Of a stretch of DNA of 64,000 nt, positions 12,875-58,958 are shown piece by piece. This DNA comes from Escherichia coli. GTDB lineage: Bacteria > Pseudomonadota > Gammaproteobacteria > Enterobacterales > Enterobacteriaceae. A program made the translations under genes and the position numbers. Position 1 is the first letter of the stretch. Each line of letters opens with the position of its first letter. The stretch is taken from assembly GCF_009931435.1 (NCBI RefSeq), contig NZ_CP043414.1; one strand, 5' to 3'. The notes under the pieces are model-generated. The model was not told the origin of the DNA. It made no database searches and saw nothing but the letters and a program-made list of their open reading frames with translations.

Positions 12875-12990
12875 ACCAAACGACTCGGGGTGCCCTTCTG
12901 CGTGAAGGCTGAGAAATACCCGTATCACCTGATCTGGATAATGCCAGCGTAGGGAAGTCACAGACCACCAGGTCATTGCTTCTTCACGTT
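12875..12990 (+). promoter_or_regulatory. TPP riboswitch (thi box) in the thiM leader
   Basis: ggggtgcccttctgcgtgaaggctgagaaatacccgtatcacctgatctggataatgccagcgtagggaa immediately upstream of thiM; conserved THI-element core (ctgaga, cctgatctggataatgccagcg). Boundaries approximate. Confidence 0.9.
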
Positions 12991-24031: not shown

Positions 24032-25387
24032 ATGTTTTCAGAAGTCATGCGTTATATTCTCGACCTCGGCCCTACAGTGATGCTGCCGGTTGTCATCATT
24101 ATTTTTTCTAAAATATTAGGCATGAAGGCAGGCGATTGCTTTAAAGCGGGTCTGCATATCGGGATTGGCTTTGTTGGCATTGGCCTTGTGATTGGCTTAA
24201 TGCTGGATTCCATTGGTCCGGCGGCGAAAGCGATGGCGGAAAATTTCGACCTGAATCTGCATGTGGTCGATGTCGGCTGGCCGGGCTCTTCACCAATGAC
24301 CTGGGCGTCGCAAATTGCGCTGGTGGCGATTCCGATTGCGATATTGGTTAACGTGGCGATGTTACTGACCCGTATGACGCGGGTGGTAAATGTTGATATC
24401 TGGAATATCTGGCATATGACCTTCACCGGCGCGTTGCTGCACCTGGCAACCGGTTCATGGATGATAGGGATGGCAGGTGTGGTAATTCACGCGGCGTTTG
24501 TTTATAAGCTCGGCGACTGGTTTGCCCGCGATACCCGAAATTTCTTTGAGCTGGAAGGTATTGCTATTCCGCACGGTACGTCGGCGTATATGGGGCCGAT
24601 TGCGGTGCTGGTCGATGCTATCATCGAGAAAATCCCAGGCGTTAACCGAATTAAATTTAGCGCCGACGATATTCAGCGCAAATTTGGCCCTTTTGGCGAA
24701 CCTGTCACCGTGGGTTTTGTGATGGGGCTGATTATCGGCATCCTCGCGGGTTACGATGTCAAAGGTGTATTGCAGCTGGCGGTAAAAACGGCGGCAGTTA
24801 TGCTGCTGATGCCACGGGTGATTAAACCCATCATGGATGGTTTAACGCCCATCGCTAAGCAGGCCCGTAGTCGTTTACAGGCGAAGTTCGGCGGTCAGGA
24901 GTTCCTGATTGGCCTGGATCCCGCATTACTGCTGGGGCATACGGCGGTGGTATCGGCAAGCCTGATTTTTATCCCACTCACCATTTTAATTGCTGTTTGT
25001 GTGCCGGGTAATCAGGTGCTGCCGTTTGGCGATCTTGCCACTATCGGCTTCTTTGTGGCGATGGCGGTCGCGGTGCATCGTGGAAATCTGTTCCGCACCT
25101 TAATCTCGGGTGTCATCATTATGAGCATCACCCTGTGGATCGCGACGCAAACTATTGGTTTGCACACCCAACTGGCGGCTAATGCTGGGGCGTTAAAAGC
25201 CGGGGGTATGGTGGCTTCAATGGATCAGGGCGGTTCTCCCATTACCTGGTTACTGATTCAGGTTTTCTCCCCGCAAAATATTCCCGGTTTCATTATTATC
25301 GGTGCAATTTATCTGACCGGTATTTTCATGACCTGGCGTAGAGCGCGTGGCTTTATTAAACAAGAGAAAGTCGTTCTCGCAGAATAA
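24032..25387 (+). CDS. gatC: Galactitol PTS enzyme IIC
   Basis: 451-aa polytopic membrane protein. Confidence 0.9.
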   Translation: MFSEVMRYILDLGPTVMLPVVIIIFSKILGMKAGDCFKAGLHIGIGFVGIGLVIGLMLDSIGPAAKAMAENFDLNLHVVDVGWPGSSPMTWASQIALVAIPIAILVNVAMLLTRMTRVVNVDIWNIWHMTFTGALLHLATGSWMIGMAGVVIHAAFVYKLGDWFARDTRNFFELEGIAIPHGTSAYMGPIAVLVDAIIEKIPGVNRIKFSADDIQRKFGPFGEPVTVGFVMGLIIGILAGYDVKGVLQLAVKTAAVMLLMPRVIKPIMDGLTPIAKQARSRLQAKFGGQEFLIGLDPALLLGHTAVVSASLIFIPLTILIAVCVPGNQVLPFGDLATIGFFVAMAVAVHRGNLFRTLISGVIIMSITLWIATQTIGLHTQLAANAGALKAGGMVASMDQGGSPITWLLIQVFSPQNIPGFIIIGAIYLTGIFMTWRRARGFIKQEKVVLAE

Positions 25388-27435: not shown

Positions 27436-28335
27436 TTAACGCAATAATGGACAATCTGGTGGTAATCGACAACGCAACGCCGCCGGAAGTATTTCAATAT
27501 GAAAGTTTTGTCCGCTCAACGGTTCGCCATCAAGATTAAAAGTGATTTCGTGTGGGGCTTGTATATCAAACCACGACGAAGCGCCTTCGATAATATTCGG
27601 GTTATCTTCGTCAGATTTTAAGGTTGATACGAGAGCCGGAAGAATTTCATCGCCGGTAAAAATGCGCAGTTGCAGCAAGCCATCGTTAATTAACGCGTTC
27701 GGACACAATTGCTGACCGCCACCGGCCTGACGCCCGTTACCAATACCAATGACCAGGGCGTCACCTTGCCAGTGAAAGTTTTCACCGCGGATTTCACAAC
27801 GGTCCGGTTGCAGAGTATCCATGCGCATTAAGCCATGAATGATGTAAGAGACGCCACCCAGCGCGGCTTTTAATTTTTCCGGCGTTTCTGTGGTAATACG
27901 CGTCCCAAATCCGCCTGTCGCCATATTAATAAAACAGGTTTGTTTGTTGACCTGCGCCATATCTATCGCAATGGCGTTACCGGCAATTGCCAGTTTCAGC
28001 GCCTTATCCAGTGCCTCAGGAATCCCTACACTGGTGGCAAAATCATTGGCGGTTCCTAATGGCAAAATTCCCAGCGCGGGTATGTCATCCCCCTCACACT
28101 GAATCAACGCCGTAGAAACTTCATTAATGGTGCCATCGCCACCACCGGCAATCACCGTTGCGACGCCCAACTTCCGGGCCTCCTCTACATATCGTGCGGC
28201 ATCGCCTTTCTCCCAGGTGACCCGCACATGGATCGTCATTCCTTCCTCACGCAACAGCATAATTGCTTCGCGCAAGGGTAGATTGTCAGTACTTTTGCCA
28301 TTAAGAATCAGTAAGCTGGCGGGAAATTCTGCCAT
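27436..28335 (-). CDS. yegS: Lipid kinase YegS (DAGK/sphingosine-kinase-like fold)
   Basis: 299-aa ORF with GGDGT motif ([13 protein letters not shown]). Confidence 0.9.
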
Positions 28336-28741
28336 GATCGTATGTGCCTTTATGATTGGTCTGTAGATAGTGTAGAGCAGAAAACAAAAGGTGGAGTCAG
28401 AACAGGATGAAAGTCGGAGGATAAAAAGTCAGTTCAAGTATGGAGGATTCAGTGGTTACCACCAGGAGCTTGCAATGGGGGACAGCGAATACTAACGGCT
28501 GCCACCGATAAATTTCAAAAAAGAGCATATACCTAATATTCAACTAAACAGTGGCATCTTCAATATAATATATTAAAGCCCCCATGGAGTTACCCTGAAG
28601 GGCCTCAATGTCCGTAATTCCTACTTATGTAGGAAATGTTGTACAGAACATTTATTATAATCCTATTCAATTATAATAATCATGCCATTATTATATTTAA
28701 ACACTAGAGAGTGTCGTTGGTATTTAATGGGGGAAGGTGAG

Positions 28742-29059
28742 ATGAAAAAGATAGCTGCTATATCATTAATTAGTATTTTTATTGTGTCTGGTTGTGCTGT
28801 GCATAATGATGAGACAAGTATCGGTAAATTTGGTCTTGCATATAAAAGTAATATTCAGCGTAAACTCGATAACCAATACTACACCGAAGCCGAAGCTTCT
28901 TTAGCCAGGGGCAGAATATCTGGTGCAGAAAATATAGTAAAAAATGATGCAGCCCATTTCTGTGTTACTCAGGGCAAAAAAATGCAGATAGTTGACCTGA
29001 AGACAGAAGGTGCAGGATTACATGGCGTCGCTCGTCTGACATTCAAATGTGGAGAGTGA
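28742..29059 (+). CDS. yegR: Small lipoprotein
   Basis: ATG at 28742 preceded by ggggaaggtgag; MKKIAAISLISIFIVSGCAVH has a lipobox (VSGC); 105 aa. Track ORF carries an unlikely 20-codon extension. Gene symbol from position and size, from memory. Confidence 0.65.
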   Translation: MKKIAAISLISIFIVSGCAVHNDETSIGKFGLAYKSNIQRKLDNQYYTEAEASLARGRISGAENIVKNDAAHFCVTQGKKMQIVDLKTEGAGLHGVARLTFKCGE

Positions 29060-29217
29060 GAATATTTTTTGGTAAGCGTCAAACATGCGCGTTCTGGTTG
29101 TGCTTAGCCGGAACCTGTGCGAGCACGATGCCGTTACGTGAAAGGCATCGTGCTATGAAGGGAGATTCTATCGATGTGGTCAATGGAAGACGGTGACCAG
29201 GGATAGGGCTTATGCAT

Positions 29218-29304
29218 AAAAAATAAGCCCGTGTAAGGGAGATTACACAGGCTAAGGAGGTGGTTCCTGGTACAGCTAGCATTTTATGGGTTATGTTTTT
29301 CAGC
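29218..29304 (-). ncRNA. cyaR: CyaR (RyeE) Hfq-dependent small RNA
   Basis: Minus-strand sequence GCUGAAAAACAUAACCCAUAAAAUGCUAGCUGUACCAGGAACCACCUCCUUAGCCUGUGUAAUCUCCCUUACACGGGCUUAUUUUUU matches the CyaR sequence as I recall it, including the terminator hairpin and U-tail. Confidence 0.85.
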
Positions 29305-29388
29305 GAAACGGATGATAACCTTAATAAATGCAGCTGTATGTGATCGGTTTCTAAGAATTTTCCATCCGGGAAAAATAATCGAAATTAA

Positions 29389-30750
29389 TCACTTACCGTG
29401 GGGGTTACGCGTGGTTTCCCCGGAGAAATGACGCATCAGCAGCGCGTAATTTAGCTCAAGATCCTGCGGCACCGGGAGCCACACAGTATAACCATCGCCT
29501 GGTGCTACCGGCATAGCTTCGCCTTTGGCGTTTTCCATGTGCTCAAGGGTAAAGTTAATGTTGCCTTGCGGCGTCATCAGCTCAAGGCTGTCGCCAACGG
29601 AGAATTTATTTTTCACCGCTACCGCCGCGAGGTCCCCCTTGCGCTCACCGGTAAACTCACCAACAAACTGCTGGCGGTCAGAAACCGAATAACCGTATTC
29701 GTAGTTCTGATAATCGTCGTGAGTATGACGACGCAGGAAACCTTCGGTATAGCCACGATGCGCCAGACCTTCCAGAGTTTCCAGCAGGCTGGTATCGAAC
29801 GGTTTGCCCGCAGCGGCATCATCGATAGCTTTACGATAAACCTGTGCGGTGCGTGCGCAATAGTAGAAAGATTTAGTACGGCCTTCGATCTTCAGCGAAT
29901 GCACGCCCATTTTGGTCAGGCGTTCTACATGGGCGATGGCGCGCAGATCTTTCGAGTTCATGATGTAAGTGCCGTGCTTATCTTCAAACGCGGTCATATA
30001 CTCGCCCGGACGCTGGGCCTCTTCGATCATAAACACTTTGTCGGTTGGTGCGCCGATACCCAGCGTCGGCTCAACATTTTGCACCGGAATCGGCTCGTAC
30101 TTGTGTACGATGTTGCCAACATCATCTTCTTTCCCTTCCTGGACGTTGTACTCCCAGCGGCAGGCGTTGGTGCAGGTGCCCTGGTTCGGGTCGCGCTTGT
30201 TGATATAGCCAGAGAGCAGGCAGCGACCGGAGTAGGCCATGCACAGCGCGCCGTGAACGAAGATCTCGATCTCCATATCCGGCACCTGATTGCGGATCTC
30301 TTCAATCTCTTCCAGCGACAGCTCGCGAGAGAGGATCACGCGGGTCAGGCCCATTTGCTGCCAGAATTTCACCGTCGCCCAGTTCACGGCGTTAGCCTGC
30401 ACCGAAAGGTGGATCGGCATTTCAGGGAAGTGCTCACGCACCAGCATAATCAGCCCTGGATCGGACATAATCAGCGCATCCGGCCCCATTTCCACCACCG
30501 GTTTCAGGTCACGGATAAAGGTTTTCAGCTTGGCGTTGTGCGGTGCAATGTTGACCACGACATAAAACTTTTTCCCCAGCGCGTGGGCTTCATTGATGCC
30601 GAGCTGAAGATTTTCGTGGTTGAATTCGTTGTTGCGCACACGCAGGGAATAACGCGGCTGGCCCGCATAAACAGCATCTGCGCCATAAGCGAAAGCGTAA
30701 CGCATATTTTTCAGCGTTCCCGCCGGGGAAAGGAGTTCCGGTTTAAACAT
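29389..30750 (-). CDS. yegQ: Peptidase U32-family protein
   Basis: 453-aa ORF MFKPELLSPAGTLKNMRYAFAYGADAVYAG, U32 collagenase-like family. Confidence 0.9.
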   Translation of the reverse strand: MFKPELLSPAGTLKNMRYAFAYGADAVYAGQPRYSLRVRNNEFNHENLQLGINEAHALGKKFYVVVNIAPHNAKLKTFIRDLKPVVEMGPDALIMSDPGLIMLVREHFPEMPIHLSVQANAVNWATVKFWQQMGLTRVILSRELSLEEIEEIRNQVPDMEIEIFVHGALCMAYSGRCLLSGYINKRDPNQGTCTNACRWEYNVQEGKEDDVGNIVHKYEPIPVQNVEPTLGIGAPTDKVFMIEEAQRPGEYMTAFEDKHGTYIMNSKDLRAIAHVERLTKMGVHSLKIEGRTKSFYYCARTAQVYRKAIDDAAAGKPFDTSLLETLEGLAHRGYTEGFLRRHTHDDYQNYEYGYSVSDRQQFVGEFTGERKGDLAAVAVKNKFSVGDSLELMTPQGNINFTLEHMENAKGEAMPVAPGDGYTVWLPVPQDLELNYALLMRHFSGETTRNPHGK

Positions 30751-30852: not shown

Positions 30853-31149
30853 TTAGCTCCAGTGTAAATGTCTGGTGGCGTCCTGGTTTTGGTTAAGGAT
30901 ACGAATGACGATAATTTCCCCTGGTGATTGCAGGAAATAAATGACGTGGCGTTCAAAAGAAAGAACAAAAATACCTTCGCCTAATTCAGGTCTGGGCGTA
31001 CCTATATTATTGTTACTCAGAATCTGGAGAACGTCTGAAAGATGTTCCACATATCTGTCGGCTTGTGGTTCGCCGAAATGGTGATAGCTGTAATACCAGA
31101 TGCCTTCTAAATCCTCATTGGCTTTTGGCATGAGTTTAATAATACGCAC
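30853..31149 (-). CDS. ParE/RelE-superfamily type II toxin
   Basis: 98-aa ORF MRIIKLMPKANEDLEGIWYYSYHHFGEPQADRYVEHLSDVLQILSNN, ParE-like; starts 1 nt after the stop of the upstream antitoxin ORF. Confidence 0.8.
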   Translation of the reverse strand: MRIIKLMPKANEDLEGIWYYSYHHFGEPQADRYVEHLSDVLQILSNNNIGTPRPELGEGIFVLSFERHVIYFLQSPGEIIVIRILNQNQDATRHLHWS

Positions 31150-31150
31150 A

Positions 31151-31402
31151 TTATTTCCTTATCCCTGCTTTCACCTTCCGTAAGAACGCGTCCTTTTCCC
31201 ACGGCTGAGCTTCACCACTACTCAACCCTTCTGCGAGCATGTCACGTAACGCTTGCAGGCGAGACTCTGCTTGCTTTTCTCGAAGTAATCGCAGTGACTC
31301 ACGGATCACTTCGCTTTGGGTGCGATAGTCGCCGGATTCAATTAAGGACTCGATAAATTCACGCAACTCATCGCCGAGATCAACCGTCATCGTTCTGGCC
31401 AT
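31151..31402 (-). CDS. ParD-family type II antitoxin (RHH)
   Basis: MARTMTVDLGDELREFIESLIESGDYRTQSEVIRESLRLLREKQ resembles ParD antitoxins; start chosen at ATG 31402 (83 aa) over the track start at 31447. Confidence 0.8.
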   Translation of the reverse strand: MARTMTVDLGDELREFIESLIESGDYRTQSEVIRESLRLLREKQAESRLQALRDMLAEGLSSGEAQPWEKDAFLRKVKAGIRK

Positions 31403-31617
31403 TTTACGCCCGCCTGTAAGTAAAAATCTTACATCAGTGTATGTCATAAACCGGATAGCGTCACGAAAGTATTAGAAGATATTTTGGCACATGAACATGT
31501 TCAGGAGGATAAGTATGGGATGGTAAACAAAGAAAGCACAACGAGTGCTCGTCAGTGCCCACTATTTTAATGGCGGCGGTTACTCTTAATTATTAATAAC
31601 TAAGCGTTATTTGGATA

Positions 31618-43389: not shown

Positions 43390-43531
43390 GAAACGGGAAA
43401 GCCCCTCCCGAGGAAGGGGCCTTAAATAAGGAAAGGGTCATGATGAAGCTACTCATCATCGTGGTGCTCTTAGTGATTAGCTACCCAGCATACTAAGACT
43501 ACCAGGGCGGGGGAAACCCCGCTCTACCCTC
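43390..43531 (-). ncRNA. sibB: Sib antisense RNA covering ibsB
   Basis: Minus-strand promoter: -35 TTGACA (revcomp of about 43562-43567), 17-nt spacer, -10 TACTTT (revcomp of about 43539-43544); terminator-like hairpin gcccctcc...ggaagggg near 43401-43420. Ends approximate. Confidence 0.6.
43440..43496 (+). CDS. ibsB: Type I toxin Ibs (18 aa, hydrophobic)
   Basis: ATGATGAAGCTACTC... encodes MMKLLIIVVLLVISYPAY, preceded by aaggaaaggg. A/B assignment by position (copy nearer mdtA), from memory. Confidence 0.8.
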   Translation: MMKLLIIVVLLVISYPAY

Positions 43532-43717
43532 ACTCCTGAAAGTATGCCTTCACGATAAGATTGTCAATCCGCAGGATTTGCCGTCTGCGATCCTGCCAGC
43601 AAATATTCTTTGCGAGTCGTTACGCAATAATCACAGAGGAAACTATTTTATTCACGCGTTAGCGATAGACTGCATTCAGGGCGAAAGGAGGTAAGCCGAT
43701 GATTTCAGCGGGACGCT

Positions 43718-43866
43718 GAAACGGGAAAGCCTCTCCCGGAGAAGAGGGCTTTTAATAAGGAAAGGGTTATGATGAAGCACGTCATCATACTGGTGATACT
43801 CTTAGTGATTAGCTTCCAGGCTTACTAAGAACACCAGGGGGAGGGGGAAACCTCTCCCTAACCCTC
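43718..43866 (-). ncRNA. sibA: Sib antisense RNA covering ibsA
   Basis: Minus-strand promoter: -35 TTGACA (revcomp of about 43897-43902), 17-nt spacer, -10 TAATTT (revcomp of about 43874-43879); hairpin gcctctcccggagaagagggc near 43730-43750. Ends approximate. Confidence 0.6.
43769..43828 (+). CDS. ibsA: Type I toxin Ibs (19 aa, hydrophobic)
   Basis: ATGATGAAGCACGTC... encodes MMKHVIILVILLVISFQAY; second copy of the repeat unit, nearer yegL. Confidence 0.8.
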   Translation: MMKHVIILVILLVISFQAY

Positions 43867-44048
43867 ACTCCTGAAATTATGTCACTCCGCACTTAGTGTC
43901 AATCGACGGCTCTCCGTTCTTGCGAGGCGAATAGCAAAATTTTCTGCGCCGCCGGGCCTAATTCTGAAAGTTTCTTCGTTTGCTCTTATTTCATTATTGC
44001 AGTCGGTATGATACCGGACCTCGATAATTCTCTAAGAAAGGATTTCTT

Positions 44049-58478: not shown

Positions 58479-58946
58479 AGTAAGTACAAAACCTATTCGT
58501 TGTATGACAAATGTCACAATTCGATCATGGATAAATCGGGGCAAAAATGCAATGTTGCAGCACTATTTATCTCATATTATTTGAGGGTAATAACCTCACA
58601 TTATCCCTGAATTAAAAGTGGTAATAATAAAACATTATTTAAGAAATATCGCATGTGGAGGCGCAATATTAAATATTGTCAACCTAAAGAAACTCCTAAA
58701 AACCATATTGAATGACACTTAATATAATTCTTAAAAATAGCCAATTGCCGAATTGTTACCTTGCCTGCTATTCCGTTAGCTGTAACACTTCCTCCTGCAT
58801 TATTGGAGAGCCAATATTCAATTACCATAATGTCACCTTATATTCGGAAGTTAATTTCCGCAATAACCCTTTCTCATCAACGATTGTATGCAGAGAGGGT
58901 TTGAAAAATTAAGCTAAATCAGTGTATTGGTAGCTAAAAAGCCAGG

Positions 58947-58958
58947 GGCGGTAGCGTG
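58947..58958 (+). promoter_or_regulatory. ops (operon polarity suppressor) element in the wza 5' leader
   Basis: ggcggtagcgtg seen directly, about 180 nt upstream of the wza ATG; matches the RfaH-recruiting ops consensus GGCGGTAGnnTG. Confidence 0.7.

Follow-up and report, generated by a model that had tools for sequence, protein, structure and literature searches.

A vacant P2 attachment site in the CyaR terminator of Escherichia coli and the probable relic of an earlier P2-like element beside it

In this E. coli chromosome, an attachment core of phage P2 with no prophage in it lies within the terminator of cyaR, a small RNA gene. We analysed a 64-kb stretch of DNA around the gene (hereafter the window). 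The locus as a whole is very probably the primary P2 attB, unoccupied and lying within the CyaR terminator, and the adjacent ~800 bp are probably the decayed remains of an earlier P2-like element. Five lines of evidence were computed directly: the identity of the core, the comparison with K-12, the frequencies of each state in the E. coli population, the presence of an insertion when outgroups are compared, and the relics of arm and core sequence at each end of it. The recombination chemistry (integration by Int and IHF, excision with Cox, strand exchange in the core) is inferred from established P2 biology and would operate here by analogy. The features of the locus, in window coordinates, are as follows.

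27436..28335, minus strand: yegS, encoding a lipid kinase; ancestral neighbour of cyaR
28336..28418, minus strand: ancestral flank, the upstream region of yegS (beginning CGACTTTCATCCTGTTCTGAC...), from sister-species alignment
28419..29217: the "yegR island", an insertion of ~795-800 bp that the ancestral cyaR-yegS arrangement lacks; it contains the spacer, yegR and the region upstream of yegR
28423..28478, minus strand: putative decayed attL, with a P'-arm-proximal part (28450-28478) and a degenerate second core (28423-28449), abutting the ancestral flank
28742..29059, plus strand: yegR, an orphan gene encoding a 105-aa predicted lipoprotein (lipobox VSGC), from the ORF and RefSeq annotation
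29060..29217: non-coding spacer from the yegR stop to the core (the "B arm" of today's attB), read from the sequence
29171..29200, plus strand: putative relic of a P2 Int P-arm binding site, aligning to P2 24293-24322
29218..29244: 27-nt P2 att core (attB "O", locI), equal to the P2 attP core (AF063097 24356-24382)
29218..29304, minus strand: cyaR (CyaR/RyeE small RNA), 87 nt, Rfam RF00112, with ends from alignment to K-12 b4438
29389..30750, minus strand: yegQ (trhP), a 453-aa ORF, the upstream neighbour of cyaR on the same strand

The P2 attachment core in the CyaR terminator

An Rfam scan of the window places CyaR at 29221-29306 on the minus strand (RF00112, 100.7 bits, E 1e-19). The match is full-length, covering model positions 1-85 of 85, and lies above the gathering score of 47. 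The usual synteny is kept, with cyaR directly downstream of yegQ and convergent with yegR. Both points on which the sequence-only reading had begun are borne out: CyaR lies on the minus strand right after yegQ, and the distance from its 3' end to the yegR stop, given there as about 160 bp, is 158 nt (29060-29217), or 161 nt if the Rfam end is used. A TCACA half-site and a TATCAT -10-like hexamer, candidate elements of a CRP-type promoter, lie 5' of cyaR.

We searched a phage collection with positions 29060-29310. Window positions 29217-29244 are identical to P2 (AF063097) 24355-24382 at 28 of 28 positions, comprising the 27-nt core and a flanking T. This P2 segment is annotated as attP and as the Int core-binding site, which upholds the earlier suggestion that the 3' end of CyaR is a phage attachment site. 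In P2 it is flanked on one side by ogr and the P arm, with its Int and IHF sites, and on the other by the P' arm, the Cox sites and int. Read in the orientation of CyaR, the core is AATCTCCCTTACACGGGCTTATTTTTT and extends from the terminator loop through the 3' half of the stem and along the U-tract. It occurs once in the 64-kb window, at the end of cyaR, and is the site known as P2 locI.

That 29218-29244 is the chromosomal attB of P2, with no current prophage, is close to certain. A tblastn search with P2 proteins returned no homologue of Ogr, Int or gpD in the whole 64-kb window at E<=1. The cryptic remnant of the K-12 type, with ogr and a gene D fragment beside cyaR, is absent, and the junction is contiguous.

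Temperate phages and islands integrate in the 3' ends of tRNA, tmRNA and sRNA genes (sdsR/ryeB in Salmonella; rybB, P2-like; ssrA). As in those systems, the att core here overlaps the 3' end and terminator of the sRNA, the phage copy would restore the gene, and repeated use appears to have left tandem or nested relics. The target is the terminator of an Hfq-dependent sRNA instead of a tRNA. The P2 integrase, a tyrosine recombinase acting with IHF, would exchange strands within the 27-nt core common to attP and attB. Since the phage core equals the host core, recombination within it would regenerate the CyaR 3' end; terminator and U-tract would be restored and the sRNA would survive. An integrated prophage would then have ogr and D beside cyaR (attR) and int beside yegR (attL). 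With its preferred site present as a perfect core, P2 should readily lysogenise this strain there, unlike K-12.

Two further features of the window were recorded in passing. Between yegQ and yegP, at 30853-31447 on the minus strand, lie two 98-aa ORFs that are annotated as a RelE/ParE-family toxin and a ParD antitoxin in a genome with an identical locus. The yegQ-yegP gap in K-12 is only 146 bp, so these ORFs form a short insertion that varies between strains; the att site lies two genes away. Two Sib antitoxin RNAs (43425-43902), the thiM TPP riboswitch (12876-12972) and a JUMPstart element (58920-58958) are expected for this chromosomal region.

Occupied and empty states of the site

The cyaR gene of K-12 MG1655 (2167114-2167200) is followed by "cryptic prophage PR-X" (2167183-2167811), which contains ogrK and the yegZ pseudogene, and then by yegR. 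PR-X is a 629-bp P2 remnant in which yegZ is a D' fragment, and it lies at exactly the point where the sequence-only reading had placed ogrK and yegZ. In the alignment to K-12 and P2 attP that it had suggested, exactly the PR-X block is extra in K-12 and missing from the window, and the core matches attP. The K-12 order is cyaR, core, P arm, ogrK, D' (yegZ), partial core (TACACGGGCTTATTTTTTT), spacer and yegR. In this arrangement a deletion has fused an attR end to the middle of the attL core. The cyaR gene of K-12 terminates in the attR core and does not differ from the window across the core stretch. Compared with P2 locI of E. coli C and its occupied counterpart in K-12, the window has an identical 27-nt core in an identical place, with yegQ/cyaR on one side and yegR on the other. 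In K-12 the locus holds ogr, D' and attR (PR-X); in the window the site is free and otherwise the same. Barreiro and Haggard-Ljungquist reportedly described the K-12 remnant at P2 locI in 1992. The other end of an intact prophage is seen in ON470606, a phage record with host flank, in the order yegR, spacer, core, int, C, cox, B.

Use of this site by P2 is already known. Archer et al. (2011, PMC3032704, Table 2) list "cyaR RNA" as an insertion site in laboratory E. coli, occupied by Wphi2 (P2) in W, by ogr-D' in K-12 and by P2*B in B, and empty in Crooks. Since cyaR is named there as a P2 insertion site, the attB and the K-12 ogr-D' remnant, and with them the interpretation offered by the sequence-only reading, were established before this analysis. 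In the literature on cyaR and attachment or prophages, this table is the only direct statement that we found. It names the same site, treats the empty state as the lack of an element, and makes no mention of an older relic in the yegR block. BL21 was considered as an example of the P2*B state and set aside, as the BL21 assembly examined has an empty site.

As had also been suggested, the states of the junction were surveyed in 5426 complete E. coli genomes, with queries that span it.

Uninterrupted spacer-core-cyaR, as in the window: 4146 genomes (76%)
cyaR-core-P2 P arm (attR): 1273 genomes (23.5%)
Spacer-core-P' arm-int (attL), counting prophages that keep at least the int end: 787 genomes (14.5%)
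K-12-type D'/partial-core junction: 358 genomes (6.6%)
Other remnants (1273 minus 787 minus 358): about 128 genomes (about 2.4%)

The uninterrupted and attR counts together cover essentially all 5426 genomes. Natural lysogens have attL and attR at the cyaR junction, each with a copy of the core, and the P2-like prophages there have int on the yegR side and ogr on the cyaR side. One of the other remnants is a 410-bp version that lacks ogrK. The empty state is the majority state, so an empty site in this genome is ordinary.

The yegR island as an insertion at the same core

The suggestion that this strain shows the uninterrupted site holds for contemporary P2. It does not hold for the spacer and yegR, which form an older insertion at the same core that sister species lack. 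We scanned one genome per species for the cyaR pattern (loci L007-L126). The distance from the cyaR terminator to the yegS start is 84-97 nt in 31 species, including three sister Escherichia as well as Klebsiella, Enterobacter, Kosakonia and Cedecea, against 891 nt in the window. The sister Escherichia, with gaps of 95-97 nt, are E. whittamii, Escherichia sp. E1V33 and an assembly labelled E. coli E69; the last is a separate species in the one-per-species collection, and its YegS is only 94.8% identical to that of the window. In these species the U-tract is followed by ~5 nt and then by CGACTTTCATCCTGTTCTGAC..., which in the window runs from 28418 downward on the minus strand. As the sister species pass from the U-tract straight to CGACTTTCATCCTGTTCTGAC, positions 28419-29217 are an insertion. 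Its start coincides exactly with the end of the P2 core, right after the U-tract, and it includes 325 bp of AT-rich DNA in which GC drops to 0.31-0.38. In principle, the same pattern could come from excision of the island in the sister species instead of a gain in E. coli.

The island is present in essentially all complete E. coli genomes, and none of them has the ancestral cyaR-yegS junction. Alone among the complete genomes, FDAARGOS_1077 has its cyaR and yegS pieces close enough for joining (708 bp), and there ~300 bp including yegR are deleted from the island. Genomes of the B2/ST131 type differ in another way: as in L003 (~1660-1830; ST131, phylogroup B2), they have ~170 bp more between the stop codon of yegR and the spacer. 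This segment corresponds to window ~29060-29068 and is missing in the window. Its first bases are also found in a relic in a divergent Escherichia assembly (L026), so the form in the window may be a deletion.

Both ends of the island resemble P2 attachment sites. Near the cyaR end, window 29171-29200 (TCGATGTGGTCAATGGAAGACGGTGACCAG) aligns to P2 24293-24322 (TCGATGTGGTCAATGTGTGGACGTGACCAG), the annotated P-arm site of Int. The first 15 of 15 bases match, and the local score of 38 compares with 14.6 +/- 2.2 for shuffled sequences, a score reached by 0 of 2000 shuffles (z about 10.7). Relative to the core, the putative relic has the side and the orientation that the P arm has in attP and attR. 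It lacks the IHF-site segment that separates arm from core in P2, the distance being 17 nt in the window against 35 nt in P2. In the L026 relic, a variant of the E. coli one, the P arm is more complete and an AT-rich, IHF-like part is kept; L026 also shares the yegR-proximal spacer (29080-29122).

At the yegS end, the putative decayed attL aligns over 57 nt to P2 24356-24412, which covers the core and the adjacent 30 nt on the P' side. About 40 of the 57 positions match (18 of 27 in the core and 21 of 30 beyond it), with a score of 19.5 against 7.9 +/- 1.3 for shuffled sequences and 0 of 5000 shuffles reaching it (z about 9). Across 20 kb of the window, higher scores were given only by segments overlapping the real core and by one at 29225 that overlaps cyaR. 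The segment also aligns to the intact attL of a relic in E. albertii, described below. Compared with cyaR by itself, the degenerate core is not significant in stringent local alignment, has p about 0.03 with soft scoring, and has p 0.003-0.04 in a position-anchored test. The degenerate core is thus weak when taken alone, and the attL claim rests on the combined match of core and P' side.

Several minor features of the spacer were also noted. Where P2 has the ogr terminator there is a perfect 11-bp hairpin (29122-29132 / 29144-29154), neither strand of which has a T-run. After it, at 29158-29167, comes a 10-nt sequence (AAGGGAGATT) that repeats the right end of the att core. Positions 29064-29112, inside the putative relic, match the right end of phage 186 (30517-30565) over 49 nt at 77.6% identity; this match is weak (E 0.8) and is probably due to chance. 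Apart from it, the phage collection gave only host-flank records for the spacer and the interior of the island.

Origin of the yegR island

We consider it probable that the "empty" site is the attR of a fossil P2-like prophage, and that the yegR block (28419-29217) is what remains of that prophage. An earlier P2-like element would have entered at the cyaR core in an ancestor of E. coli, become fixed, and lost everything except a lipoprotein cargo gene. Its attR would have kept a perfect core that now serves present-day P2 as attB, and its attL would have decayed. The core at attR presumably stayed perfect because it is also the CyaR terminator and would have been under selection as such. A tblastn search of the island with Ogr, Int and gpD found no residual P2 structural or regulatory genes, and yegR is the only gene inside.

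A better preserved case occupies the same slot in E. albertii NBRC 107761 (locus L010, 4906-8412), where cdtABC lies in the cyaR-yegS gap. The order is cyaR with its core, a P-arm relic, an IS fragment, cdtA, cdtB and cdtC, a P' arm, a second core, GTACCGCGACTTTCATCC and yegS. The cdt ORFs match the Pfam families CDtoxinA and Exo_endo_phos. The P' arm is ~70 nt long and about 90% identical to P2, the second core (ATCCCCCTTACGCAGGCTTATTTTTTT) matches at 23 of 27 positions, and the ancestral flank starts right after it. In this arrangement cdtABC is toxin cargo that a P2-like phage has left in the cyaR-yegS slot. The relic is direct evidence that elements of the P2 type decay in this gap, with cargo and att copies staying behind. 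It shares with the yegR island the slot, the ancestral flank, attR and attL ends of P2 type, and the loss of all phage genes. It differs in being far better preserved, in having an IS fragment, and in carrying cytolethal distending toxin genes instead of yegR.

P2-like P arms follow cyaR in ten species representatives, including Citrobacter, Enterobacter and Salmonella diarizonae. Several of these P2-like prophages carry cargo ORFs flanked by the P arm and ogr, where yegR would correspond in position. Such ORFs indicate a likely cargo-gene (moron) slot right inside attR. At three loci (L039, L109 and L030; Citrobacter youngae and Enterobacter sp.) the ORFs between P arm and ogr are unrelated and span 0.2-2.3 kb.

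Among the alternatives to a fossil P2-like prophage, the one that survives best, though we think it unlikely, is that another kind of mobile element (an IS, a satellite or an island with an unrelated integrase) brought the yegR block, and that the thin P2 scar arose later, for example by imprecise loss of a prophage. The interior of the block has no P2 homology, distant yegR homologues occur in an IS/Tn3-rich Enterobacter island and at an unrelated chromosomal spot elsewhere, and the 10-nt partial core in the spacer hints at more than one event. Against this, both boundaries of the block are of P2 att type (the core at one end, P' and core abutting the ancestral flank at the other), as a single att integration predicts, and besides the copy of the core we saw no IS ends or target duplications.

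A site that was never occupied is less probable still and is already disfavoured. The spacer and yegR would then be ordinary ancestral chromosome, and their resemblance to P2 arms would be chance. Such a reading fits the lack of phage genes in or near the site, the presence of the block in essentially every E. coli and the annotation of yegR as a normal chromosomal gene. It is opposed by the sister Escherichia and many other genera, in which cyaR lies ~90 nt from yegS without the block, and by two independent likenesses to P2 att arms, one at each end, in the right order and orientation and unmatched in 2000 and 5000 shuffles. The low GC of the island and the unmistakable relic in the same slot of E. 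albertii also stand against it.

The most improbable reading is that the arm-like sequence in the host flank is functional, as an arm-type Int site aiding the preference for locI: its first arm repeat is perfect (TCGATGTGGTCAATG, 15/15) and it is 95% or more conserved across E. coli, but there is degradation of both the second repeat and the IHF segment, a perfect 27-nt core already accounts for the preference, low divergence within E. coli may be all that the conservation reflects, and tyrosine-integrase attB sites, as in the lambda and P2 systems, normally need only the core.

The reading of the empty site as the scar of a fossil P2-like prophage is the one addition made here, and a modest one, being an incremental example of a well-known process. 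No statement of the empty site as an attR/decayed-attL scar was found in the literature searched on cyaR and P2 or prophages. If the scar reading is true, K-12 carries one remnant nested in another, and P2-type phages would have a pan-enterobacterial hot spot for depositing cargo in the cyaR-yegS gap, with yegR in E. coli and cdtABC in E. albertii as examples. An sRNA terminator would preserve an att core over evolutionary time as the duplicate copy decays. "Empty" reference sites used in calling prophage boundaries could themselves be scars.

The scar reading would also give the orphan gene yegR an origin. YegR belongs to a single family, PF27694, and its homologues are found almost exclusively in E. 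coli and Shigella. The distant copies are 51% identical, in the IS/Tn3-rich Enterobacter island, and 47% identical, beside mug in another taxon. No yegR homologue was found among the P2-like phages and the P2-like prophages of other species that were searched, so its arrival as cargo of the fossil element is argued from position only. A match of YegR to PHROG 21109 (E 9e-71) was rejected as evidence for phage origin, as the matches in the phage collection are carry-over of host flank. ON470606 (L004, "phage vB_EcoM-720R8") contains the host genes gatR, yegS and yegR. Both this record and PHROG 21109, which is essentially YegR, are likely host-flank contamination caused by the att site at cyaR, and scar sites of this kind probably explain how host genes such as yegR leak into phage records and into a PHROG family.
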